From positions 186,001-250,000 of the forward strand of contig JAQGDQ010000111.1 of the NCBI GenBank assembly GCA_030141605.1: DNA of 64,000 bases, in the 5' to 3' direction. Positions 24,785 to 64,000 of the stretch are shown in pieces. The notes beneath the pieces were generated by a model. That model worked only from the letters and a program-made list of their open reading frames with translations, searched no databases and was not told the DNA's origin. Both the position numbers and the translations under genes were made by a program. The DNA comes from Tubiluchus corallicola. Taxonomy: Eukaryota > Animalia > Priapulida. Numbering within the stretch: position 1 is the stretch's first letter; every line of letters begins with the position of its first letter.

Positions 24785-24979
24785 CAGTCAAAGAAGCGCA
24801 GACGGTCTCTACAGGAGAGCATTGATCAGCTGCAACAGCAGCAGCAGCAACAACAGCCTCCACTGATGATGAATCCACAGATATTAACGCCTCAGCAGAT
24901 GCAAGCCCTACTCCAGCAGCAGGTACTTACGCCTCAGCAACTACAACAACTTATGGCACAGCAGCACCTCTTACAACAG
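24785..24979 (+). CDS. FoxP: FoxP coding exon, Q-rich N-terminal region (first exon identifiable in window; phase 0-0)
   Basis: Polypyrimidine+cag acceptor and gtatgt donor; 195 nt translates QSKKRRRSLQESIDQLQQQQQQQQPPLMMNPQILTPQQMQALLQQQVLTPQQLQQLMAQQHLLQQ, matching the FoxP1/2 motif [27 protein letters not shown]. Confidence 0.93.
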
Positions 24980-27559
24980 GTATGTTGAGTTTCATGGCGT
25001 TCTGTTGTTTTTATGAAGGAGTCGTGAGTGTTACTCTGTTACCACATTCGAAAAATTAGTATGGGTGACAAATAGGTTCGTTATTGTGTGAAGCTTTGTG
25101 CTAATACACATACACAAAGGCATTGGACCATGCTGCAGAAATTCAAGTACATCGAGAGTTTTGTAATTGCAGTGAGCGTGTTAGGTGATTTTCATATTTT
25201 TACGTAACTATGCAATTCATTGGCAAAACTTAGCATTTGCTGCTGCAGTGATAAAAACACACAGTGCATTTTGGCAGTTTTATCTGATTTTGGCAGTGAT
25301 GCGTTGAAGCCAGTGGCAAAGCAGACAAGAGGCTACGAAGCAGTAAACAAAGCAGTAATGTGGGCGTGTGTTGTAAAACACCCGAAATTCTGTCCCTTTC
25401 TTCCGTTGTAGATTAAACTATATTGCCGCCCGATCCCACTGCCAGTTATTGTGATTGTTGTAACGAATGAATTGAACGTGAGTTGTCTATGCTATTGAGA
25501 ACCAGTATGTAATTCTAAAGCAGGCTGCATGAGTACAAACTTTGTAATTGTTGTCGTTGTCCATGGCCTCGTCGTCTATAAGGAGAATATGAAACTTACC
25601 CTTTTGCTCATCTCGTTAATGTTTTAACGTCGCAATAGTTTATTTATTATTATTATATTTACTCGGCAGTAAAGCTATTTTAGATTTAAGAAGTGAAAAC
25701 GTTGGTTTGTTTCCATGACAAGTTACACTGCCAATGATTGGCCGGTTATTTTACTGCACTGACTTACTTGCACGTAACCGCTATATAGTGATTGCCATAC
25801 ACTTCTTAACACTGTTTGTTTGTATACGCGCCGTTGTGAACATGCCTTTACGTCTTCGAAGCTTTGAAGCTTAATTTGCATCACAAGTTATTGTTATCTA
25901 CTTTATATAGTGAAACTGATAGGATTAAGACTTTTACTGATTTTTCTGCCATTTATCAAAACATTTCATGCGCTTTAAAAATTTCAAAATCACTTCAATA
26001 AAAAACGATAAGAAAATTAATAGCATTTTATTTGCTTGCAAAATGTCTAAAACAGTCAAATCCCTACCTATCACAATGCAACAGATTCAAAGGGAAAGCA
26101 TTTAATAAACTTTATTTATAATGTGTGTGTTATCATTTTTAGATATTAACCATTCAAGCACTATATAACCATGGATTAACGGCTAGCAGTTGAAGCAATT
26201 TTTCATAATCGCCGTTAAAATTCTCGCCGAAATCAGAGTATGGGAAATAAAACGCATTTGAATATGTAAATTGATTCTTTGAAGATGGTTATTACGCCGG
26301 GAAGGCTAGGCATTAATTACATCGTTTATAAATTTCTGCCTCTGTCGCGTCTTTGCCGCCATTATATCTGTGCCAATTTCATAACAATAAACTTACTTAA
26401 TGAATATACTTAGCGCGGATTAGTATCGCCGCACTACTTGCGAGCGGTCGACGAGTGAACGATTTTAAAAGATTATCATTATTGCGCCTTAACTAACATC
26501 GAGTGCAACGGAAGTGGTGCTGACAACCACTGGACATAGCAGTGTTTACTTTTTCGCTGGATTACTGCGGTTTTTACCTGTTTGAAGGGCAGATTTCTTT
26601 TATTTTAGAATTCTGCCTGCCTAATATCTACAACAAACGCGATTGGCATAATAATATTATGATGATGATGATGATGATGACTGTAGAAAATTTAGAAAAG
26701 CAATTTTCTGTTGGCTACCCAAGTTTTTTTTGTCATTTCATGTACAGTGTATAAAACTTATTTTAGTCTAGAGTAATAAGCTACGTTTGAATTTAAAATT
26801 CTTAAACATCACAATGGCACTGACAGGTTGCGATGACTGAAATATTTCCTTTCGCAAAGTTCTTCGAAATCTTATGCAGACGGCTCTGTATTTCGGACAC
26901 TTAGAAGCTCTCGTTCATTTACGAATGGGTTGCTATTTGTGTTTTGTACGTAATCCTACCAGACTTTACATAGGTGGCTCCGCTAACTATTGTTAAGTGG
27001 ACTCCGTTGTAATAGTTATGTTTCTGCAATACAAGAACTGCATATCTATAGCATTTCCTGCCCTTCTAGCCTGTCGGGCATTTTGCGTTATCCTTGCAGA
27101 TGCCTGGGTGAAAAATGGTCCAATCACGGCCCTTTCACTGCATGATGGCGTCTGTGCACTAAACCTGGCAGTGTTGTTTAAATTTAAATGATTGCCAAAG
27201 CAATTTTTCACTTGTTTATTTTCGCTAGCATTCCCACAGTGCATCGTGTTTGTTTGTTTATGTTTGCTAGCACGTGTTTACCTCATCTGTTCATTGTTTA
27301 CACGTAACGCTAGCTTTGTTTATTTTTTGTTGACATGGGGAGCATTTTGTTGGTGGCGTTTTTGTAAACTCAGTCCAGGCCAGCTATGCACACATGGTAG
27401 TGCAGTTTTCACCTCCGACGTCTCTTTCTTCTTCGATTTTTTTACTAATCGTCTCTGGCAAGACCACTGGCCACTTAGAAGTAAATGGCCACAAGAAAGT
27501 GTGTATATCTTATTGATTCTCATAACTGATTAGCTAGTGACAAGATATACCTGTTAACG

Positions 27560-46700: not shown

Positions 46701-48590
46701 CTGAAATCTTTGTTTACTTAACGCTGAGTAGGAACAATGAGTTTGTGTGTTCTTGTTGTTGTTTCCCATACTTCTCATCCTCTGCTTCCGATGAGGATTT
46801 TTCATCTTGTTGACGTTGCCAGGAAACCAGTTTTCAATGCTGGATGGACTAAAATTCGAAAATGTCGCGTTGTTTTGGATGGCAAGGTGTCCTTACTTGC
46901 CTGATCCTTACTTGCTTGAACCGTTTTTTTTGGTGAAGGACTGAAGTGATCGAAAATTGATACTGAATGAACGAAATAGCCGAACGAACGAAGTTAGTAA
47001 ATAATTCGCAGACAAGGAAAGTAGTAAAAACCGTTTGAACGAATGCAAATACGGCCGAGCAAATGACCAAAAAAAAATACTAAAGGAATGTGAGTGAAAG
47101 AAAATGAATTGATGCCTGAATGAGAATGAGTGAGTGAATGAGTTTGAGTGAGTTGCTAAGCGAATAAACAACAAACACTCGAAGTTTGAAGTATAAATGC
47201 TTACATTGATGACGGAACTATTACTAATAAAATGAGTTGCCCTTTTTCTTTTTTGCAAGCAACAAAGAGTATTTGATACTAGCGACGCCTGTTGCTATAT
47301 ATGACTAATATTGTCAACTATGACATAATGTAGGCTCACTTTTAATTGAGTCATTTCGTTTCGAAAAATATGATAAACAATACGCTGCGCGGAATGCAGG
47401 AAAGGTAAATACGGATCAGTTTCACTTTCTAATTTGTAAGATCAATACTCTACTTTTGAGTAGGAATGATTGCTAAGTGATTGAAAAAAAGGGTAGGAAA
47501 AAATGGAAAGCAGTAATTATTATACTGTTTGGCATTCAACCTGACTGTTCCAGGTAAGGTTTAATGTACATGGTTGTGGCAGGACCAGAATCCGGCTAAT
47601 ATCTGGGTAAACTTATTAAGTGAGGTGCTGCTCCAACAGAAATTTCTTAAACACACTTGGACTTGCATACTTGCTTCGTCTACAAGAGAAAGTGCTGGAG
47701 CTATATGGCACGAAACTGCTGACAGGATTTTCCTGATGTCCACCCATCCATATACTAATTAAACCATGCTTAATTTCTATGTTTTATGTTTGTTTATTAA
47801 AATGACTGCGCGCTAAGGTAAAGTTACATGTTGTTTCCCCTTTTGCAAATATGATTGGTGATTTATACTGACGATTATCAATCGGGTTTTGTTTAAGTTA
47901 TCATGCATTGTTTTAATATTTAAGATGCTTTTCAATATTATAATTATTTTTTATTGTGAAAAGAACTTTGTTATACCACGATTACTTTGTGCTGAAGAAA
48001 ATGTGCTTTCACTGTCATTTTTTGTTACTTTTAATGTAATATTTTTAAATATTTGATGACTAGGTGCAATTGGTGAAATGAGTGATCCTTTGATCCTTGC
48101 AGAACACCAGATAAGCGTTATTAATTTATGACGTACTACTTGGCCTTGTCATTGACACTTGGGAGAGCTTGAAGACAGTAGTTTATATCACTGGCTTAAT
48201 TTTAACAGTTTTGTAAGAACCCAGATAGCTACGCATTTATTAATAGCCCATACAGCGTTGTTCTCAGCAACAGTCACGGCTTGTTTATTGCTCAAGGGCA
48301 GGCTTGTTTACCACTGCGTTGTTTGTTTACGTTCTGCATCTCGCCGGTTGTTTACTTCTGACTAGAGGCTAGTTCCCGCAGGAGCGAGTCGAGCTATTAA
48401 TATACTGGGAATGTTTGAAATCACGACAGTCTACTCTGTATCGCGTTCATATTAAGGCAAACATTTTGCCGGAAAAGACGCCATCAAATAAGCAGCTTAC
48501 ATCAAAGTGTCATTTTTATTATAATGCTGTCTTTTCCTGGTACCCAACTTTGATATGTTTATATCAAGTGCACCTTATACGTATATTCGA

Positions 48591-52002: not shown

Positions 52003-52107
52003 CAACAATTGCAAGAACTGTATGATAAGCAAAGCAAGCAACTCATGCAACAGCTTCAGGAGCAGCTACAGTTGAACATGTTGCAACAGAATCATCTAAT
52101 GCAACAA
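52003..52107 (+). CDS. FoxP: FoxP coding exon, Q-rich (phase 0-0)
   Basis: ttttctttccag acceptor, gtaagt donor; QQLQELYDKQSKQLMQQLQEQLQLNMLQQNHLMQQ resembles FoxP [21 protein letters not shown]. Confidence 0.93.
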
Positions 52108-52734
52108 GTAAGTTTCTTCCAATTTCTTTACATTTAGATTGGATAAACATCAACTGGTTTTTACTAATTCTCTGGCATTAGATAGTACACTCATATCTCG
52201 GTTTGCCAGACAAAACCGAGCCAATATTTATCGATACTAAGCTAATACAGTAGATGCCATGGATTAGACTCACGTTAATGTAGAATCAATCGCCTAATTG
52301 CATCAAAAATGTCTAGTACTTGCCGGTCCCGACATACAAGCTACACATGTCATGACACACTGCTTGGTTGGTTACACTGGTGTCATGATGTAAAAACAAG
52401 GTGACAGCCCGTCAACTAGCAGTCAGCTTGAGAAACAATGGACTGTGTGTCTGTAGTATGCGGAACTTTTAGCGGTCCAGATTTTGTCCGATTTTCCTGA
52501 TATCTGTAAAAGTGATATAGAATCTGTGAATTATGCATTGCATTGCAACATTGCAACATTGCTCAGTGGTCAATGCAGTCTGCAATGCAAAAAAGTGCAC
52601 CTGCAAGTGAGCTCAACTGACCAAAGGCCTCTTCTGCTGCCCAACCAAGTGCCCGGTCATTTCATCACTTTTAATTTTTCGTACAAACTTTGTTAAGATT
52701 TCATTGTTCAAAACATAATTTTTTCTTTTCCCAG

Positions 52735-52882
52735 GTGAGTTCGGAGAAGAAAGGTAAGCAGGCTCAACAGCAGCTTCATCAGTTAGTGTTACAGCAGCAA
52801 CAGCTGATACAGCAGATACAGCTGCAACATCGTAACTTTCTTCTTGGTCAGGGAGTGCTTCCTCCGATACCGCTTCCCCAAG
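52735..52882 (+). CDS. FoxP: FoxP coding exon, Q-rich (phase 0-1)
   Basis: ttttcttttcccag acceptor, gtttgt donor; VSSEKKGKQAQQQLHQLVLQQQQLIQQIQLQHRNFLLGQGVLPPIPLPQ(G); phase fits both neighbours. Confidence 0.88.
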
Positions 52883-53929
52883 GTTTGTGTTCAAGTTTTT
52901 CCAAAGCCTTAGTTGGAAAATATACTAGTTTTACAGTGGTGATAGTATTGTTCATACCGAAACAAATCATTAAACTATCTGTTTGTTTTAAAAATTAAGC
53001 AGTTTTTACTCTGGTTAGTATAGAGATAGGGACCTTATGAGACTTTTAATTCACCTATCTTTGGAATTGCTTATAAAATACCTTGTTACCAGTGGTATTT
53101 GTGTAAGCTTTTGAGTGCGTTGGTTTTAGTTTTGCGTTAACGATTTGCATGTGTTTTTCAAGCTACTTTTATGTAATACGTTTATTTCGAGTACACAAAA
53201 ATAAATTATGTAGTTGTGTAAAGTTAATTTGTTTGTATAATACTTGTGATTCGTTTAAAATTATATCTAATTTAAGTATAAAATGTTATTCGTTGTACAT
53301 AGTGTGAAACTGGATTTAAAATATTTGTTATATGAAAATGTAATTTGTTGATCTGAGCCTATATCTATTGTATTTATATAATATTGCATGTAATAATATT
53401 TTAGAAGTAAAGAATTCTAGTATTAAGATTAAGATTATTTATCTCATTTAAAGTTTGACAGTGCATAATGGACATAATAATAATTTTAACAACTAAGCAA
53501 ATTAATAAGTATTCGTTATTGTTTATATTAAAAAAAGGTTGATTATATGGAGAAAGAGTGGCGAATTGCCATACAGTCAGCCGTCCCTATTTACAAATTT
53601 GATACGTTTTGCACATATAACTTGATTAGAGTTATAATACCATTATTTTTTGAAATTCATTCAATTTCAGTGTAATAAAGAAAAAGGTAAAAAAACGTTA
53701 ATGTAAAAGTAAAAACGGGCAAATTAAGCAAAAACAACGTTAAATAATATAACATAATAATAATGTAATATAACATGTGAAAAGCAGCTTTTTGTATAAA
53801 AGCATAATCATAACAAAAAAAATCGTGAAAAGTCCATTAAGTGAGATACTAGTAATAGATAATAATAAACTCACAGTAGATTGTATTAATAAACAAGTTA
53901 ATGAAATTTAAATTACGTAATTTCTTCAG

Positions 53930-54073
53930 GTCTGAGTCCCCAGGATATGCAAACAATATGGAAAGAAGCCATGGCCTCTGGTGCTAGCGAAAATGAAAAA
54001 TACTCAGTAAATGGCCTTCTAGGGAGTAGTGGAACTTCATCCCGGCTGTCAAATGGCATTCCGGAGTTTCCGG
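53930..54073 (+). CDS. FoxP: FoxP coding exon (phase 1-1; alternative in-frame end at 54079)
   Basis: tttcttcag acceptor; (G)LSPQDMQTIWKEAMASGASENEKYSVNGLLGSSGTSSRLSNGIPEFP, matching FoxP GLSPAEIQQLWKE; two phase-1 GT donors at 54074 and 54080. Confidence 0.88.
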
Positions 54074-55104
54074 GTAAAGGTAATAAACGACTTATGCTGT
54101 AGTCATGGTATGAAGAGTTCCCGTGTTCTTACATGCATGCTTCGTTGTTAGCGGGATGATGTGTTCTTTTGCTACTGTTGTATTTTTTGCGTATTATAAG
54201 TTGTTTACTTGTTTTTGAGAGTAGATTCCTTCTCTTGTTTTGGTCAACTTACCTGCCTAAGAGGTATAACTAACAATAGATAATAATATAATTCACGAAG
54301 AGTTGCTTGTTTTAATAATGCAATTGGTTAGATGAAAATTTAATCTCATGAGCCAAATATGGCAGTCACCAGAAGTAATGGACGAAAATTGGAGACTGTC
54401 AAGGAGACAAAGATTGAATTTCTCACCTGTCCGCTTTATACTTTAGCTGCTGATGCACACTTTTAGGTAAAGTTTCACCAATAAATGCAGCTTTGCTCGT
54501 ACTGTTAGCTCATCTCAGAACTTATTTTGTAAATGCATGCAAATATACAAATAAGTGTTTATTTATTTATACATTTATTTATTTGCAAACTTCTGCATCT
54601 GTAAGTGTGCTAGCGTCCTGTACTAGTAAAAAGAATAGGTAGTCTACAACAGGAAAGTCAAAAGTGATATAAGTGTTCACTACCATTTCTCTAGAAATTA
54701 ATATATTCATTACATTTATTAACAGACTAAGCATTTAAGTAATTAAACATTTAGATTATAGTAAAATCTTCCGATAAAATGTTTTTTTCGTGAAGTATTG
54801 ACTGAATAGTAACATAGTTGTGCTACCTTTGTTTGGTATCACCACCGTGGGTCACCATGTTCTATGCAATGAACCTGCTGTTCAGAAAATGCACCAACAA
54901 ACCAGTCCCACATAGAAGACGTTTCAGTTCAAAAAAACAAGCCCGTCGTCCTTCACATTTTAACTTATTCGAAAATTTCGCTCGTCTCCGCAAACATTTT
55001 TTCTGCGTGGCTAAGAGCCATTGTGCTCCGGTATTGACACAAGACCTTACGAATGTATTTTATGAAAATATTGTTGCGACTGATGTGTGTTTGTTGCATT
55101 GCAG

Positions 55105-55210
55105 GTCACAATGACTCTCCAGTTTCCATCACCAATGTACTGTACGGACACGGAGTGTGTCGGTGGCCCGGGTGTGACACAACATGCAAAGACGAGAATG
55201 CCTTTCTAAC
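55105..55210 (+). CDS. FoxP: FoxP coding exon, N-half of C2H2 zinc finger (phase 1-2)
   Basis: ttgcag acceptor, gtaaat donor; (G)HNDSPVSITNVLYGHGVCRWPGCDTTCKDENAFL, the diagnostic FoxP LYGHGVCKWPGC motif. Confidence 0.96.
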
Positions 55211-56107
55211 GTAAATACAAACTAAAACTATTTAATAGAAAACTATTCTGCTGCTACTAATGATATCCTTATGTTGATGCAAAACAACTTATGAAACCTG
55301 TTTTTTTCTATTTGGCCTCTTATCTGTGAAATTCTCACTAGAAAATGTGTTCCAGTAAGTGCAGCGCATAGTTGTAAGCATTCTGTTTTTTGGGAATAGT
55401 GTTCCAATCTTGTTTTTCTGACTGTACCTCACTGTGAGTGTAAAAAAACGGGCATTTGGGTGTTTGTTTAAAATAAACAGGAAGTTGAAACTATTTACAT
55501 ACGTAATTATCGATGAATAAAAATTTTTGGCTTAGTATGCAAACTACTTTCTCGTAATTTGTCAACGACCAACTCATCATTAGCATGTTACTTGATTTTT
55601 TCCAGTTTTGGGAATACTGACTATATTTAGTATTATTGTTTTTAATAGTGCAACAACACTTTGTCCAATTTTGATGTGATAAAATTTGATAGCACTGTTG
55701 TTGTTATTGCTGATTCTTTGTCATCGATACGTCGTTAATTAACGATTAGTACGTAAAAATTTCATAAATCAAAATTGAAGCTTTTAAGCCTGTTGTAAAT
55801 TAGATGCCTGTTCATACTGATGTACTTTGCAATTGTAATTAATAAATTGATAATGCATGCCAAATTTTGTATTTCTTTATGTATCCTGCAACAACATTTT
55901 TGCTATAGTTCATTTTTTGCAAAACAAGTACCGTGTGGAATTCACTTGCAGCATCATGTTTTCTTCCTCTGATCTATGAGGAATGACAACATTAATTATT
56001 TTAATCTTCTCAAATTGAACCTCGTATTGCCGTGAGGTGCGGCATTACACCTATGATTTAACTGCTTTAATTGTTTGTGGTGTACTAAGTTGAAAGTTGT
56101 ATTTTAG

Positions 56108-56195
56108 GCATCTCAATGAGGAGCATCAACTGGATGATCGGAGTACAGCACAAGCCCGTGTTCAAATGCAGGTTGTTAATCAGCTAGATTTGCAG
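56108..56195 (+). CDS. FoxP: FoxP coding exon, C-half of zinc finger and start of leucine zipper (phase 2-0)
   Basis: attttag acceptor, gtaggc donor; (T)[29 protein letters not shown], diagnostic FoxP [16 protein letters not shown] motif. Confidence 0.97.
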
Positions 56196-57505
56196 GTAGG
56201 CAGCACCATCTTTTTTCTCTATGACAAATGTAAACAATTCTGCTTTCATGCTTTTAGAACAGTGACTTTCTATGATGTGTTGATTATGTTGAATTTTACA
56301 ATGGACCACAATTTTTAAACGTTTATTAATTTTAACTGTTTGTGGTATGATAAGTCGACATGTGACCTATTTTTACAGTTTGTATATTTGCTTCGTCATG
56401 TAAGAATCTATAGTTGAAAAATTCATTCTGGGTAATTTCATCTGCTGTTCTGTAAGGGAGGCTGTATCAGCCTGTATGCGGTTCCGAAAATGACTAAGAC
56501 ACCTATGCCCGTTCAGTACCTCATCTAAGAGTATTATTGTGAATAATGAATTAGGTACCGGTCCTGTCACTATGACCTACACTGAATAGACCCTACAAAT
56601 GAGTGCTGAATCTCAGTTTGCAGGAAGTGTGTAAAAACTGCTTATTTTTTAATCGGAAAATTGACCTATTTTTTGCCATCTTATCACAAATTTTGTGAGT
56701 AGTTTCAAATGGTAAACCAGTTTTAAGAAGGTGAATGTAAAAATGATGTAAGAAGAGCAAGAGCATGATCGTTACCAAATTTGGCACTAGATATTACTCC
56801 CTCACCTGTCCTGACCTTTTCAACGAAACATTGTGTATTACCAAGCAGCAGTTTATGAGTTTTGTGATGGGGGGCAATGTGGGAAAATCCACGTAAGTGA
56901 TAACGTAGTCACTTCATAAGTTATTTGTTCTGTGGCTTAGATCTCAATCTAAGATTCTTCAAAAAGTTATCAGAAAATTTACCATTGTCAAAGATACACA
57001 TACATTCCAAATGTCTTGTAAAATGTTTCTTTGTCGTAGCGTGACTTCATTATGTCACATTGATGCTCCAAGTCATTTCTCTTGACCTGGAGTGAACGTC
57101 ACCATTTCGGGTTGGTTGCGCAAATTTTGACTTTCAAGACTTTGACCGAGTGCAGTTATCAGCTGACAGGAAGCAGTTTGTGTTAACAGGAAGTGCCCCT
57201 TCCTAGCACGTAGCCATCACAGATCTGACCATTTAGTTGTAGTGCGGTTGAAAGTGATTCGGACGGGCTGGTTTCGTATTGTTGTGCGGCAAATACCTTT
57301 GCATCATTTCAGACACACAGGTGTGGTGTGCAGGTTGTTGGCATTTGGTTATGGTTCTGACTTTTCCTGTTAGATAACCATTTTATTGATTTTTTGATGA
57401 TGTATGTAGCATCATATTTTTAAGACTTGTAACTTTGTACCATGGTTTTATGGAGCTTTTAACACTTGCATATTTAACTTAATTCGATGCTTGTTTCTTT
57501 TCTAG

Positions 57506-57902
57506 CTGTCTAAAGAGCGAGAGCGATTACAAGCCATGATGCAACACTTACACATGAAACCACATCAGGGCTCTCCGAAATCTGAACCACCTCCCCCTCC
57601 TCCACCTCCTCCTCTCCTTCCCCAGCACTCGTTACCACCCCCAGTCAGCATTGCTAACCTAATGGTCATGGCGAGTGCTAGCAAGCCGCCATTAATTAAT
57701 CCATTGGCGCTGGTGTCCGCTTCATCCCCGGTGCAGCTTCCAACTTCCCCCGTGAGCCTCTCTCAGGCGAGCCCACCTCTTTCTTCTACGCCAAATACCT
57801 CCCTGACACCGGCAACTCCGTGCAATCCGCAAGCTAGCCTGTGTCACAGCGGACCAATCAGACGGAGGGTTTCAGACAAGGGCACTTTACCGATATCAGC
57901 AG
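57506..57902 (+). CDS. FoxP: FoxP coding exon, leucine zipper end, Pro/Ser-rich linker (phase 0-1)
   Basis: ttcttttctag acceptor, gtaagt donor; LSKERERLQAMMQHLHMKP...poly-Pro...NPLALVS...GPIRRRVSDKGTLPISA; 397 nt = 132 codons + 1. Confidence 0.96.
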
Positions 57903-57909
57903 GTAAGTA

Positions 57910-58144
57910 CAGGGTGTTCAGAAAGTCGTTGTGCACATATCTTTATTAACCAACGTTTCAATATAGAATACAGGAAGTAAATATGAATCAGAATTATAAA
58001 CAATGTTCAAAGTGACCCCCATTAATATCAGTACAGGCTTGTATCTTTCTTATTTTGTTTGTACCAAAAGCATTTTGGGATCAAAGGCTGAAATATTAAA
58101 AAAACATGATTAGAAAAGTCCAGAATGACTTTCCGGACACCCCG
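57910..58144. mobile_element. Tc1/mariner-like MITE
   Basis: TA|cagggtgttcagaaagtc ... gactttccggacaccccg|CA: 18-bp imperfect TIRs with TA on the left and a probably mutated TA on the right. Confidence 0.78.
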
Positions 58145-58438
58145 CAAAACTACGGCCTTAGTTTTCTCTTAGGTCCCTGACTTAAGTCCTTCAACTGATG
58201 CAATTCAACTATACTTTAGTGCAAAGCAGAAATCATTCGTGTGCCATAATCAATAGTTACTTTTAGTTTATGCTAAATATCTCTCAAAAATTTGTCAAAA
58301 TTTTCCTCACTTTAGTACTAACTTGTGATGAATAGTTTACAGTCTTGTACAGCCTGTCTTCTTCACACAGTTTTGTTTGAGAACGAAAACTGTGATGCTA
58401 TTGCATGGAATCATCACAGGTTTTTTATGCATTTTCAG

Positions 58439-58515
58439 AAATACAAAGAAACCGAGAGTTTTATAAAAATGCTGATGTTAGACCTCCGTTTACGTATGCA
58501 TCCCTAATTAGACAG
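58439..58515 (+). CDS. FoxP: FoxP coding exon, start of forkhead domain (phase 1-0)
   Basis: attttcag acceptor, gtgagg donor; (E)[25 protein letters not shown]. Confidence 0.97.
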
Positions 58516-59636
58516 GTGAGGATAAGACATGATTTTACAGTTTCTCAATGTTTTGGCTTTTAATCATTACTTTAGTAGAGATTCTAGAGCTTTTTGTAAT
58601 GCGAAATCTTAATTTGTAAGCTCAGTTAGACTGAACTCGCTGCTATAAATTTTGTAAACTAACTTTAACTGAAAAAAAAGAAACTTGGCCGAGTTTATAA
58701 TGTTGATGGTTAAGACAGGGCCTAAACTCAGTTAATTGTCTAAACTAATCTTTTAAGACGAGATACTGAACCAATAGAAGCTGCTTACCATTGCCTGACA
58801 TGTCTGACATGCTGCTTTAATGAAAGAAGTGACTGGGCAGTAAGGCAAATAAAATCATCCCGAAGCAGTATTCCTAGTGGTTACATATCCATTTAGTAAC
58901 TAGGCACAATTTTGTTTAACTTTTGTCACCTAGTGCACACTACTCACTTATGCTCTTTACTGAAATGTGAAAAAAGTGCAATTAGCCTGAGATATATACA
59001 GATTTAGGAAGTTTGGAAAATAATCTTATGCAACTGAACTATGTATCCACAAGGTGCTCGAAAGCTTCCTTATTTTATCTGTGCATTTGTACGTTTTTTG
59101 TGGTCTTCTCTGTCATTAATGCGCTTTGGTTGACCGACTTTATATGAGGTTCGCCATTGTTTTGATTATATAAGGTTTTCTTTAATTTTTCATGAGTTTC
59201 GTCATCACCATGAATACCGTGATGTTCCACAAAAACTGACTACTCATTTTGTAAATTGACCTTGTGTCAGGTGAACAGAGTGCACGAAAGAGCATTTTTG
59301 ACTTCAAACCCACATAAGGAAATAACGCCAGTTTCTAACACTAGAGAGATACACTGGTCAATTCTTTTGTGGGATAACTCTTGCACAGTTTCCTGTGATC
59401 ATTTACAAGTTCATCGTCCTGAAAGGGAAGACGGGTTAACTTGTGTGACAAAACTACATTTACCCAAAAATTGGAAACTGTTTGCACATAGTTCCCTGCC
59501 CCACCCTCTTAGCTTGATTCTGACTGCATGTCACATTATCCATGCAGCTTTCGTAACATCACTTCTGCTTAGTATTCACGCCTTGTCGTCATCTCTTTTT
59601 TCCACTCTCTAAAAACCCTGTTTTCTTATCCTCTCC

Positions 59637-59743
59637 TGTTTACACGCCCTTGTTTATGCGTCCCTGCTCGTTTTGTTTGTGCCCAGACGATTGTTTATCT
59701 TGCATCTACTGGGTTGTTTATCTTTGCCAAGCGCTTTGTTTAC
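59637..59743. promoter_or_regulatory. Co-oriented forkhead motif array
   Basis: TGTTTAC at 59637 and 59737; TGTTTAT at 59651, 59692 and 59715. Confidence 0.5.
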
Positions 59744-60970
59744 CCGCCTTCTTCGGCAAAACGAGCACCTTGTTTGGTTTATGCTTTAATGCACGCTGAT
59801 GGTTTATTCAGTGGATGAGAGAGAAATTATCTCGATGGGTCGGCAGACGGACGCATTGTCCCCGAGTTGAATTCATTCACTCAGCTGCCGGCTGAATTAA
59901 AATTATATTTTATTTACTTAGCGGCCGTATGTGGAAGTGGGCAAAACATGTCCGCTGTTTCTTCATACTTGTTTGTCGTGCGCCGTCTTTCATTTCTCGC
60001 TGAAAATAATCAATTGCTAACACGTTTACGCTCTGTAAATGGACATCTTTCACGGTAATGAACTACTTCCATATCGTAACTTTTGCGAGCACCCTTTTCA
60101 TACATTCTTCTCCCATTAATTGCACAGTTGCGTATTACTTGTTGTTAATTGTTAGAAAAGTCTGTTTCGAATGAGTTTGTTGCTGAACTGTAATGGCATC
60201 ATTTCTTTACGACCGCTTATGAGTGAGTTCTCTCGTGTGTTCTTTTTGGAACTTGTAACCCACATCTCTAGTTGTTCTTGTTCTTGATTTCCCATTGAAA
60301 ATCACGTTGATTCTTAGCATGGGTAATTTACTCATTTTGCAGTACTTGTGTTTTCAAATTCAACATTCTGGCCATACTTTTCAGGTTAAAAGTCGACGTT
60401 ATATTTTCATTTGTAAGATTGAAAAGTCATAATCACGTCATTGCTTCATTAAGGACCGAAGTGAATACTGTTTAGAGTTTTTATTAATGCATTTTTAGCA
60501 AAAATTTGTTTTATGTTTCCTAAAATGACTCTTTGGTAAGGAAGCTGTAAACAAAAAGTCTATCTAAGATAATATGTATAGCAAACTGGTGTTGTGTAAT
60601 TAAATATTATTATAATTTTCGAGTTTATGATATTGAAGGGGTCATAACTTCCAGTACTATTTGTTTCTAGTCAATGGATGGAGCCACAGGATTTCTATAG
60701 TATGCTTTTTGTCTTAATCCAGAAATTCTGATGTATCGTCACCTACCATCATGAATTGTGTATTATCAAGTTTGTGTAGGCTTTATCAACTACATGACAC
60801 TATAACGTTATTGTATTTGTACCTTTCTGGCGGCTTTCTGTGTAATATTTAAATTTAAATTTTTTATTGCTTGTTTGTTAGAAGTGGCTTGGCACTGCTT
60901 TGCTGTTTTTGGTTTTTGCCTTCCTTTTTTATCTAATTGACAATTTCACCACAAGGTGTCTCTTTTTCAG

Positions 60971-61072
60971 GCGATCATTGAAGCGCCGAATAAAGAACTC
61001 ACCCTAAACGACATTTACAACTGGTTTCAATCCAACTTTCTTTACTTCCGGAAAAACGTGGCCGCCTGGAAG
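60971..61072 (+). CDS. FoxP: FoxP forkhead middle exon, copy A (putative mutually exclusive; phase 0-0)
   Basis: tctttttcag acceptor, gtactg donor; 102 nt, [34 protein letters not shown]. Confidence 0.93.
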
Positions 61073-61133
61073 GTACTGCACTTTTGTTTTTGTTCTATTT
61101 AATGGTGTTTTTTACGACATTGTGTATATGTAG

Positions 61134-61235
61134 GCTATTATTGAAGCTCCCTTCTATCAGTTGACACTGAGTGAAATTTATCAATGGTTTATGAGGAATT
61201 TTGCATACTTTCGCCAAAATACTCACACTTGGAAG
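61134..61235 (+). CDS. FoxP: FoxP forkhead middle exon, copy B (putative mutually exclusive; phase 0-0)
   Basis: tgtag acceptor, gtacta donor; 102 nt, [34 protein letters not shown]; same length and phase as copy A. Confidence 0.92.
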
Positions 61236-62480
61236 GTACTAACTTTTGTTTATATTATGTGAATTTAACAGTGGAGTTTCGTTCAGTAAAAGTACAGGCA
61301 AATAGGAAACATAGATGTACAGCTGTAGTTCATGTAGAAGACTAAGAGCAGTACCTGTTTAGTAGAAATATTAGTTTCTAACAGTAGAGTCTGTTTTATT
61401 TTATGCAAAATAACCTTCTGTATGTGTGCAGCTTAAAACTGTATAATTAAATTTTCTTACACTTGTGTAATAACAGTAAATTGTTGTTGGCAATTTTGGC
61501 TACAAAAAAGTTTTTCAGTCATACAATGATGTTTCATTCTCGACTTAAATCACTTAGTAAATTTTCTACATGTTTTATGGACCGAGACATTGAGAATAAT
61601 GTGCATTTATTTGTAGGGTACTTTTTAACCCATGCGTGTGTTGCCTTGGCTGTGCAAGTAGTTATTTTTATTAGCCACCTGATGGCGGCACAGAGAAGTG
61701 TATTAGAAATGAGACCATTCCTTCCCTCTTCCTCTATAATGCCATATCTTCTTTTAAAAACATTGTAAAATGAATTTATCCACACTGCAAGTTAGTATTA
61801 TATTTGTCAAAATGCTGATATTCGGCTGCTTTTTGTTGCAGTTTTAACTTATTTCACGTAATTATTTTGTTTAATTAACAGTTGAATGAAGTCATGTTCA
61901 TTTCTGCCACAAGTTTCAAATCTCCATTTTGCTGAATGATAACATCGTCCAGTAAAATACTGATAGAACGCTGTTTACAAAATGTTGCAATAAGTGGGAA
62001 TGTCCACGATTCTCTAAGAAGCTTTAACTTAGTAGGGAGGCATAAGAAGAAATTTTTTGGTAAAAGAGGATAGGATAGTGATGACCCGCAAAGGAGGGAA
62101 TCTTTCTAAATAGGCAGAGTTGATATGTCTGCTTTATCTTACAGCTGTGTTATTTTTTGTTTGTTTTGCAAGAATATTTTTTGCCGGGAAGTTTCAGTCC
62201 AGCGAAATATTGTACATGCAATTTTTTGTTGAGTTGTACTTTAAATTTAAAAATTCTTGTTTTGCCTTGTGTGAAGAAATATTTACAAAGTTTTTTTAAG
62301 TAAAATTGATTTTTATTTGCTGCTTCTAATATGCTCGAACTTCAACAGAAAACTTGTGCATGAAACCCCATGCTATAGCTGCTTATTGTAGTGTTGTTTT
62401 TGTCCAGAATAGCTGTTGCTTGGCTGCCATTGGCTTCTTATAGCTTTGCTATTTGCTAATATTTGTTTCTCATCCCGTAG

Positions 62481-62605
62481 AATGCTGTGCGGCACAACCT
62501 AAGCCTTCATAAGTGTTTTATGCGTGTGGAGAATGTTAAAGGAGCGGTGTGGACGGTCGACGAGATCGAATTCTACAAACGACGGCCTCAGAGGATGTCT
62601 AGCGG
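62481..62605 (+). CDS. FoxP: FoxP forkhead recognition-helix exon, canonical type (copy C; phase 0-2)
   Basis: tttctcatcccgtag acceptor, gtaggt donor; [41 protein letters not shown](G). Confidence 0.96.
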
Positions 62606-62614
62606 GTAGGTGTC

Positions 62615-62702
62615 GTCAGCGTACGTTGACCCCGGCATGTCCTCGAACTTCGGCGGTCGGCCGCCTGCCTTACCGTCGGTTCGGGCAACTTGCCGGAGAT
62701 CA
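62615..62702 (+). other. Intronic RNA stem-loop(s) between exons C and D
   Basis: ccggca (62632-37) pairs with tgccgg (62691-96); cc(t)cgaac with gttcggg; cggcggt with accgtcg (one G-U); ggc with gcc; a small near-palindrome gtcagcgtacgttgac (62615-30) lies just upstream. GC-rich island in AT-rich introns. Confidence 0.75.
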
Positions 62703-62747
62703 TTTCTTCTTTCTAACTGTTTGTCTTTTTTGTTTTTCGTCTCTCAG

Positions 62748-62893
62748 AACGCCATACGTACCAACTTGTCGCTGCATAAATGTTTTGTAAGAATCGAGGA
62801 CGAATTTGGATCCTTCTGGATGGTCGATGACGACGAATTTGCATTGCGGCGCCATCTAACACGTGGCCGACCGCGCAAATACATCGATGTACA
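62748..62893 (+). CDS. FoxP: FoxP forkhead recognition-helix exon, alternative type (copy D, FOXP1 exon-18b-like; phase 0-2, or stop at 62895-62897 if unspliced)
   Basis: ttctaac branch site, long pyrimidine tract, ctctcag acceptor; [48 protein letters not shown](Q); ca|gtaaga donor in the same phase as copy C. Confidence 0.94.
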
Positions 62894-64000
62894 GTAAGAG
62901 TACCATTCAAAAATTTAGACGTGGAAAATTCACAAGTGGAAATCTTCACCACATATTAGTTATCAGTCTACAGACTGTTCTTTTAATGCATTTCCTTGTC
63001 GACCAGAGCAAAATAAGTAATGTGTCTGAAGTTGAGAAAGATCCAGAATTCCAAATTCGCGATCTTGCAAGATATTTGCGACTGACTCATTATTTTGTTG
63101 TTATTTATTTTCTTAGTTGTTGTGTTATAAATTTTCTTCTGGGTGTGGTGAAGGTTTCTGTGCTTGCTTATAAGTGTATTCAGCATGTTGTGTGTAACAA
63201 ATTCTAATTAAATGGATCATGCATGGAGCGAGATACTGTTTCACATACCGAGTTGAATCGATAATAATAATTGGGTCCATCGTACATCTATTAAAGGCAT
63301 GCAGTGAAGTAGTTGAATTGCTTTTTGTGGATATGTTTTGTTGTAACTCAGTTTTATGTGTAGATTAAATAAAATATCTGGCATAGTTTGTACGTGCCAG
63401 GCAGATGAGCATGTTTATTATTACATGTAAGTGCGACTTCGCTAATGTACAATGGACTGTATTTTGTTGGTAGTAGATGTTTGTTCTGCAAAATTTTATA
63501 AATGATAAATATTGTCAATAAATTCTAATCTAATCTGATGTATAACAGGTATAGATCATTCTAGCATCCTGCAGTATTTCGGCTATTGTTTAGTGTGTTT
63601 ATCAATTATTGTTCTAGATCAGTGTACTTAACCTATACGTGCCGGCATCCCCATGGGCGCGAGATATTGTTTTTGAGGGTGTGAGAATTTTCTTAAAGAC
63701 AGCATTTTCGTTTTGCTCTTCGTCATTTAGTGTTTCATAGTTTTTTTTTGTTTCAAGTTGTCAAGTCGTTGAATTTCTTTATACTTTGACTCTACATTCT
63801 TACAATCTTCATCTTTGTCCTTGTTTGGTTATGCATCAGTTTTGGCATAACCTTCTATGCAGATATACGTAGACGTGTGAAAGGTGATTATAAGTCTTCA
63901 GCACTGGAGGTGCAGTATGCAATTTAAAATTTCAGTGGGTGCCTGCATAAAAAATGTTAAGCTTCACTGTTCTAGATTATGTACACTTTTTGCTTTCTGA

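Follow-up and report, generated by a model that had tools for sequence, protein, structure and literature searches.

Few animal protein domains are as highly conserved as the forkhead domain of FoxP proteins, and it is still debated whether swapping and multimerisation of this domain are important in vivo. Here we describe a tandem duplication of the middle forkhead exon in a FoxP gene of the priapulid Tubiluchus corallicola, located in a stretch of 64,000 nucleotides (nt) of genomic DNA (contig JAQGDQ010000111.1 of assembly GCA_030141605.1, positions 186,001 to 250,000; hereafter the window, with all coordinates counted from its first letter). The two copies, A and B, constitute a real, old and expressed duplication that recurs in other animals and that we did not find in print.

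The closest described system is a switch in the same gene and the same domain that likewise involves tandem-duplicated homologous exons. The isoA and isoB forms of bilaterian FoxP, which include exons 18 and 18b of vertebrate FOXP1, are described as differing in the recognition-helix exon, where His554 is replaced by Thr (PMC3002244). According to Santos et al. 2011, the exon for the first part is constant, and the Drosophila isoforms are identical at all positions involved in domain swapping (PMC3002244). The isoA/isoB switch concerns the next exon, whereas the A/B pair differs at the hinge itself. A previous interpretation made from the letters of the window alone (hereafter the sequence-only reading) had kept the two systems apart, and rightly so, given both the account of Santos et al. 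2011 and the Pfam Forkhead positions involved (14-48 versus 49-82).

Two other systems show how such a pair may be used. Sterically enforced mutually exclusive exons have been reported for 57 of 629 human exon clusters (PMC5740500) and for exons 4a/4b of OGDH (PMC7969005). What they share with A and B is homology, equal length and a predicted branch point less than 50 nt from the upstream donor; unlike in the human cases, the branch point of the A/B pair is a motif guess, and the limit of 50 nt is a vertebrate figure. In the vertebrate COE/EBF transcription factors, on the other hand, duplication of the exon for helix H2d-H2a is followed by mandatory inclusion (PMC2394523). This is also a tandem-duplicated, in-frame helical exon of a transcription factor, but the COE/EBF repeat is located in a dimerisation helix, whereas a repeat of A plus B would sit inside a compact DNA-binding fold.

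Structure, age and expression of the exon pair

Copy A (60971-61072) and copy B (61134-61235) lie on the + strand, and each is an open exon of 102 nt in phase 0-0 that is preceded by AG, followed by GT and ends AAG/GTACT. The copies are identical at 21/34 residues and 60/102 nt, and different codons are used at 12 of the 19 conserved residues other than Trp. Recomputation reproduced all the figures of the sequence-only reading for the pair (length, phase, 21/34, 12/19 codons and the AAG/GTACT ends). In this respect the pair agrees with tandem-duplicated mutually exclusive exons: the two homologous exons are neighbours, equal in length and phase, and their splice sites are intact. Both match Pfam Forkhead at positions 14-48 of 88, above the cut-off, and the best PDB matches of both are FOXP1, 4, 2 and 3. 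The encoded segment had been labelled as the end of helix 1 (H1), helix 2 (H2) and the hinge, which is correct as far as it goes; the exon also holds the start of the recognition helix (H3). A degenerate pattern of the exon occurs at two places in the window, against 0.00 expected from 100 shuffles, and no third copy was found in the window by tblastn or with a hidden Markov model (HMM) of related exons.

The copies differ at 19/21 synonymous and 23/81 non-synonymous sites (proportions pS 0.90 and pN 0.28; Fisher p 2.5e-7), and the excess of pS over pN is similar in codons 1-17 and 18-34. When a dead copy was simulated at a distance of 0.5, it remained open with at least 21 identities in 3 of 20,000 runs, and neutral decay of one copy is rejected. 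Synonymous saturation together with a low pN implies that both copies are old and under selection, which bears out the proposal of an old duplication with purifying selection on both copies.

The arrangement is also present in independent DNA data, from which we left out run X1 as possibly the source sample. In run X3, which belongs to another study, a contig covers 60716-61192 with three other letters and one gap; since it spans the arrangement, an assembly artefact is excluded. In the diverged run X5, copy A, the intron and copy B are covered at a depth below 5. At 61031, both X5 and a further run, X6, have G, which changes Ser21 of copy A to Ala, and the one variant listed in B (61226) is synonymous.

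Run X6 provides the transcript evidence. It is one small run from another study with the same species label, and its RNA status is a guess that is backed by joints at GT..AG; it diverges from the exon pieces by 0-9%. Three of its contigs were compared. One joins 57902 to 58439 and 58515 to 60971, and stops exactly at 61072, the last position of A; another begins within B, at 61183, joins 61235 to 62481, and continues into an exon beyond the window. Both outer junctions are at GT..AG, and because the contigs hold one outer junction each (58515 to A, and B to 62481), both copies are spliced.

Occurrence in other animals

A profile of A plus B gave 905 matches among 1.84 billion representatives, the best 150 of which were examined. 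In the top match among these (P0003), one open frame continues across two tandem copies of the exon, and the highest identity for a single exon was 25/34. Three other matches (P0004, P0006 and P0040) were dropped as cases of a duplicated exon because they look like divergent proteins with multiple forkheads, and two more (P0071 and P0143) because they have no second full copy. P0016, likewise dropped, is a predicted protein that runs across an incomplete tandem repeat, involving the 5' half of the exon.

Scanning metagenome contigs for the exon pattern yielded at least 115 loci, 80 with long flanks and 35 of at most 677 nt. Three of these at least 115 loci (L014, L035 and L061) carry a second intact copy with AG and GT, and in each of them pS exceeds pN between the copies. 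The sequence-only reading was not aware of this exon being duplicated elsewhere; the same exon is doubled in L014, L035, L061 and P0003. No second copy was present in the 48 listed metagenome loci that span the upstream exon to the next exon (33 distinct peptides). We also considered 67 proteins in 10 clusters, from scallop, tunicate, urchins, ticks (15/34 members), acorn worm, insects, coral and one unnamed source; among the 61 of these 67 with a forkhead, each cluster has a single middle-exon peptide and no second variant. The duplication is thus patchy.

In each of L014, L035 and L061, it is the second copy that has diverged, the first remaining close to the usual sequence. Unlike in these loci, neither copy in the window is near the usual sequence, as A and B each match the majority at 22/34 residues, the median among 59 single or first copies being 27. 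Asn7 and Gln20 of copy A are common to all three second copies, and Asp14 and Leu24 are shared with that of L014. The best tree of the exon (34 columns) puts copy A together with the second copies of L014 and L061, without support. Over the same columns, a single clade of second copies is neither demonstrated nor rejected (p of the approximately unbiased test, p-AU, 0.28), four constrained groupings gave p-AU 0.19-0.28, and two further groupings are part of the best tree itself, without starred support; these trees fit one origin or several. A tree of 28 rows places the FoxP of the window between arthropods and other bilaterians, also without starred support.

The scan also returned a class of strongly divergent FoxP-like genes (L015, L033, L070 and L089; also L044 and L101). 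The single middle exon of L033, L070 and L089 contains LCDIYAWF, a motif that is present in the second copy of L014. This exon might be an alternative exon that became fixed in a duplicate gene.

Predicted consequences of the residue differences

Residues were mapped by adding 15 to the exon position to obtain the FoxP1 domain numbering (via chain 16-49 of 2KIU, with an engineered Pro at 39). The interface of the swapped dimer is described as containing eight aromatic residues (PMC8508939). Six of these eight are in this exon (W33, F34, F38, Y40, F41 and W48), and all six are kept in both A and B. The C-terminal halves of the copies score 50.7 and 50.2, and neither half of either copy is relaxed, which is what folding as a whole element predicts. 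As all six aromatic residues are kept, each copy likely folds as a whole element.

The copies differ at two positions that are relevant to self-association. The H2-H4 hinge (exon position 24), at which the FoxP subfamily typically has Ala rather than Pro, is Leu in A, and thus neither Ala nor Pro, and Ala in B; a hinge Ala has been linked to domain swapping (PMC8508939, PMC3002244), and the hinge residue of Drosophila is given as Cys (PMC3002244). Exon position 8 is Lys in A and Tyr in B. This position corresponds, through FoxP3 alignments with an inferred offset of residue numbers, to R356 of mouse FoxP3, which is reported to be a rung contact of the ladder multimer (bioRxiv 10.1101/2023.07.12.548762). 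Tyr was found at position 8 in none of the 59 single or first copies, and the same is true of the residues of B at positions 7, 13, 28, 30 and 31. Copy A, with Lys8 and Leu24, would keep the contact of the ladder multimer and have an altered domain-swap hinge; copy B, with Tyr8 and Ala24, would do the reverse, keeping the swap hinge and altering the ladder contact.

The base-contacting residues N550, R553, H554, S557 and W573 are located in the next exon (PMC3002244). Because the residues that read bases directly lie there, the exon pair is predicted to affect self-association more than sequence specificity, and would tune the dimer or multimer state and the choice of partners. Together with the known downstream pair, this would give up to four predicted forkhead domains, which would differ in self-association and in DNA reading.

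Alternative or joint inclusion of the two copies

We consider it likely, with a probability of roughly 60%, that A and B are mutually exclusive alternatives in splicing. That each copy would fold as a whole element argues for alternatives over an insert. A steric clash could bar double inclusion: the copies are separated by a 61-nt intron (61073-61133, + strand), in which the A of the single branch-like YTRAY motif lies at a distance of 30 nt from the donor of copy A; this is under the steric limit used for human exon clusters, a branch point less than 50 nt from the donor (PMC5740500), bearing in mind the guessed motif and the vertebrate origin of the limit. The pyrimidine tract at the acceptor of B is weak (7/14). 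The first 20 nt of the intron behind A are homologous to those behind B (GTACT and a U-rich start), the two donor starts aligning with a score of 9-11 versus at most 3 against nine other donors. The homologous intron starts behind both copies suggest a shared splicing signal. The recurrence of this architecture, with pS above pN, in L014, L035 and L061 also favours mutual exclusion.

Several observations weigh against mutual exclusion. Among the junctions proposed for checking by the sequence-only reading, 58515 to 60971 and 61235 to 62481 were seen; 58515 to 61134 and 61072 to 62481, both needed for mutual exclusion, were not seen in the X6 contigs, so that mutual exclusion itself is something we infer. 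If the copies were purely exclusive, a toy de Bruijn graph would end the upstream contig at 60972, with another break where the next exon starts. The contigs of X6 are continuous across both outer junctions, and one ends at 61072; the toy graph yields this end when the path leaving A can go to B or straight to the next exon. An intron of 61 nt need not block the splicing of A to B, because introns of 60-70 nt are reported to be those spliced fastest in Drosophila (PMC5762160), and sterics cannot be the general mechanism, because the introns between the copies in L014, L035 and L061 are 654, 675 and 1290 nt. RNA pairing in the style of docking sites was rejected as a mechanism, as the pairings do not go beyond shuffles (best 4/60; 10 sites tested): a 19-nt inverted arm over the 58515 donor (58509-58527) with a partner at 59624-59642 was equalled in 4/60 shuffles, and a 13-nt arm over the donor of A with a partner at 61344-61356 in 11/60. 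Finally, the functional step, from the residue differences to self-association, is deduced only from residue mapping.

These observations bear on the strongest alternative, a less probable but serious one, in which A is included constitutively and is followed by B, either always or as a cassette, resulting in a 34-residue internal repeat in the forkhead domain in the style of COE/EBF. The geometry of the X6 contigs equals that of toy models containing U-A-next and U-A-B-next (U, upstream exon), A plus B is in frame, so that double inclusion would cause no frameshift, introns of this size are well spliced in Drosophila (PMC5762160), and the departure of both copies from the usual sequence, unlike the situation in L014, L035 and L061, also fits this view. 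The contig ends thus lean toward co-inclusion, which is the main result against mutual exclusion. The lean is real but weak, because a haplotype difference at 61042, a third codon position in A, would also end a contig at 61072, and because X6 has holes in constitutive exons too (57787-57824); moreover, graph cleaning can drop short links. The junction of A to B is unseen in X6 as well: no contig crosses it, and 61134-61182 is without cover, which, like the missing cover of the exon at 62748, is uninformative. Further, A plus B would yield only one complete fold, yet the full core is kept in both copies, with neither half relaxed. In the forkhead fold, both ends of this exon are inside helices, which also speaks against an insertion at this point.

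Mutual exclusion of two functional copies must also be weighed against the improbable case that B is minor or regulatory, as a poor isoform or a decoy, and that A makes nearly all the protein. The weak pyrimidine tract of B, its residues at positions 7, 8, 13, 28, 30 and 31 that are absent from the 59 single or first copies, and the premature stop that results from retention of the 61-nt intron would agree with this. Against it stand the strong protein-level selection on B, the synonymous nature of the B difference at 61226, and the depth in X6 of the contig containing B (104.7) compared with that containing A (80.6), although contig depth is a poor measure. It is very improbable that either copy is a dead relic or that the pair is an artefact of assembly, given the arrangement in X3 and X5 contigs, the splicing of both copies in X6 and the rejection of neutral decay, even though no close relative confirms A or B at the protein level (in a word-indexed search of 5.8 billion proteins, neither shares three 5-residue words with a scored protein).

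The FoxP gene around the pair

The window contains, on the + strand, most of a FoxP gene. Seven upstream exons (52003-58515) splice in frame and, in the model translation, encode a glutamine-rich (Q-rich) region, a C2H2 zinc finger, a leucine zipper and the start of the forkhead domain. The first six of them (52003-52107, 52735-52882, 53930-54079, 55105-55210, 56108-56195 and 57506-57902) account for the Q-rich region, zinc finger and zipper; the seventh (58439-58515) encodes the start of H1, and its donor feeds the pair. The assignment to FoxP is backed by blastp matches of the model to FoxP proteins; a lead to FOXP-CC is weak. The same word-indexed search with part of exon 57506-57902 gave no scored match, which, as for A and B, is weak evidence.

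Downstream of the pair are the two known alternative exons (Santos et al. 2011), which match Pfam Forkhead positions 49-82 and hence represent the isoA/isoB switch: one of the isoform A type, with His in the recognition helix (62481-62605, + strand), and one of the isoform B type, with His changed to Thr (62748-62893 up to a GTAAGA donor, or to a stop at 62897; + strand; no X6 cover). The GTAAGA donor after 62893 shares its phase with the isoform A exon, and the exon at 62748-62897 may therefore be internal rather than terminal. In the model of 52003-62897, every exon combination tested stays in frame, including the one with both A and B.

Other features were observed in the window. Another Q-rich FoxP-like exon is located far upstream, at about 24786-24980, and a repeated element at 57908-58142, where contigs of X1, X3 and X5 accumulate in large numbers, occupies part of a 536-nt intron. 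In total, 102 copies of the forkhead motif TGTTTAY are present in the window (42.6 expected; 0/100 shuffles reached the observed number), and same-strand clusters of 4-5 sites are present at 59637-59743 (in the intron upstream of copy A), 27255-27323 and 48282-48355. It is possible that these clusters are FoxP autoregulatory enhancers.

Conclusions

We found no report of a duplication of this exon in the literature on FoxP exons, isoforms and domain swapping (mostly open-access, supplements apart). There is no mention of it in the passages on exon, isoform, splice and tandem of a 2025 FoxP survey (PMC11998571; supplements apart), nor in the available passages of an arthropod Fox survey (PMC9269926). 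The description of the pair as apparently undescribed therefore stands with respect to the literature covered, but the duplication is not unique to this genome, as L014, L035, L061 and P0003 carry it.

Its recurrence in other animals means that FoxP gene models miss this exon. We tentatively propose, while considering it rather doubtful, that the pair represents an overlooked second FoxP exon switch that is common to several invertebrate lineages, possibly through one ancient duplication, and that determines, independently of the specificity switch, which oligomeric state the forkhead domain adopts. If true, FoxP would have a 2 x 2 combinatorial DNA-binding domain, in which a choice between swap hinge and ladder contact is combined with the specificity switch. 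If both copies were included instead, the forkhead domain would contain an internal repeat, a stranger outcome. A natural exon pair that alters the hinge and the multimer contact, and leaves the base-reading helix to a separate switch, would provide a handle on the question of whether domain swapping and multimerisation are important in vivo.
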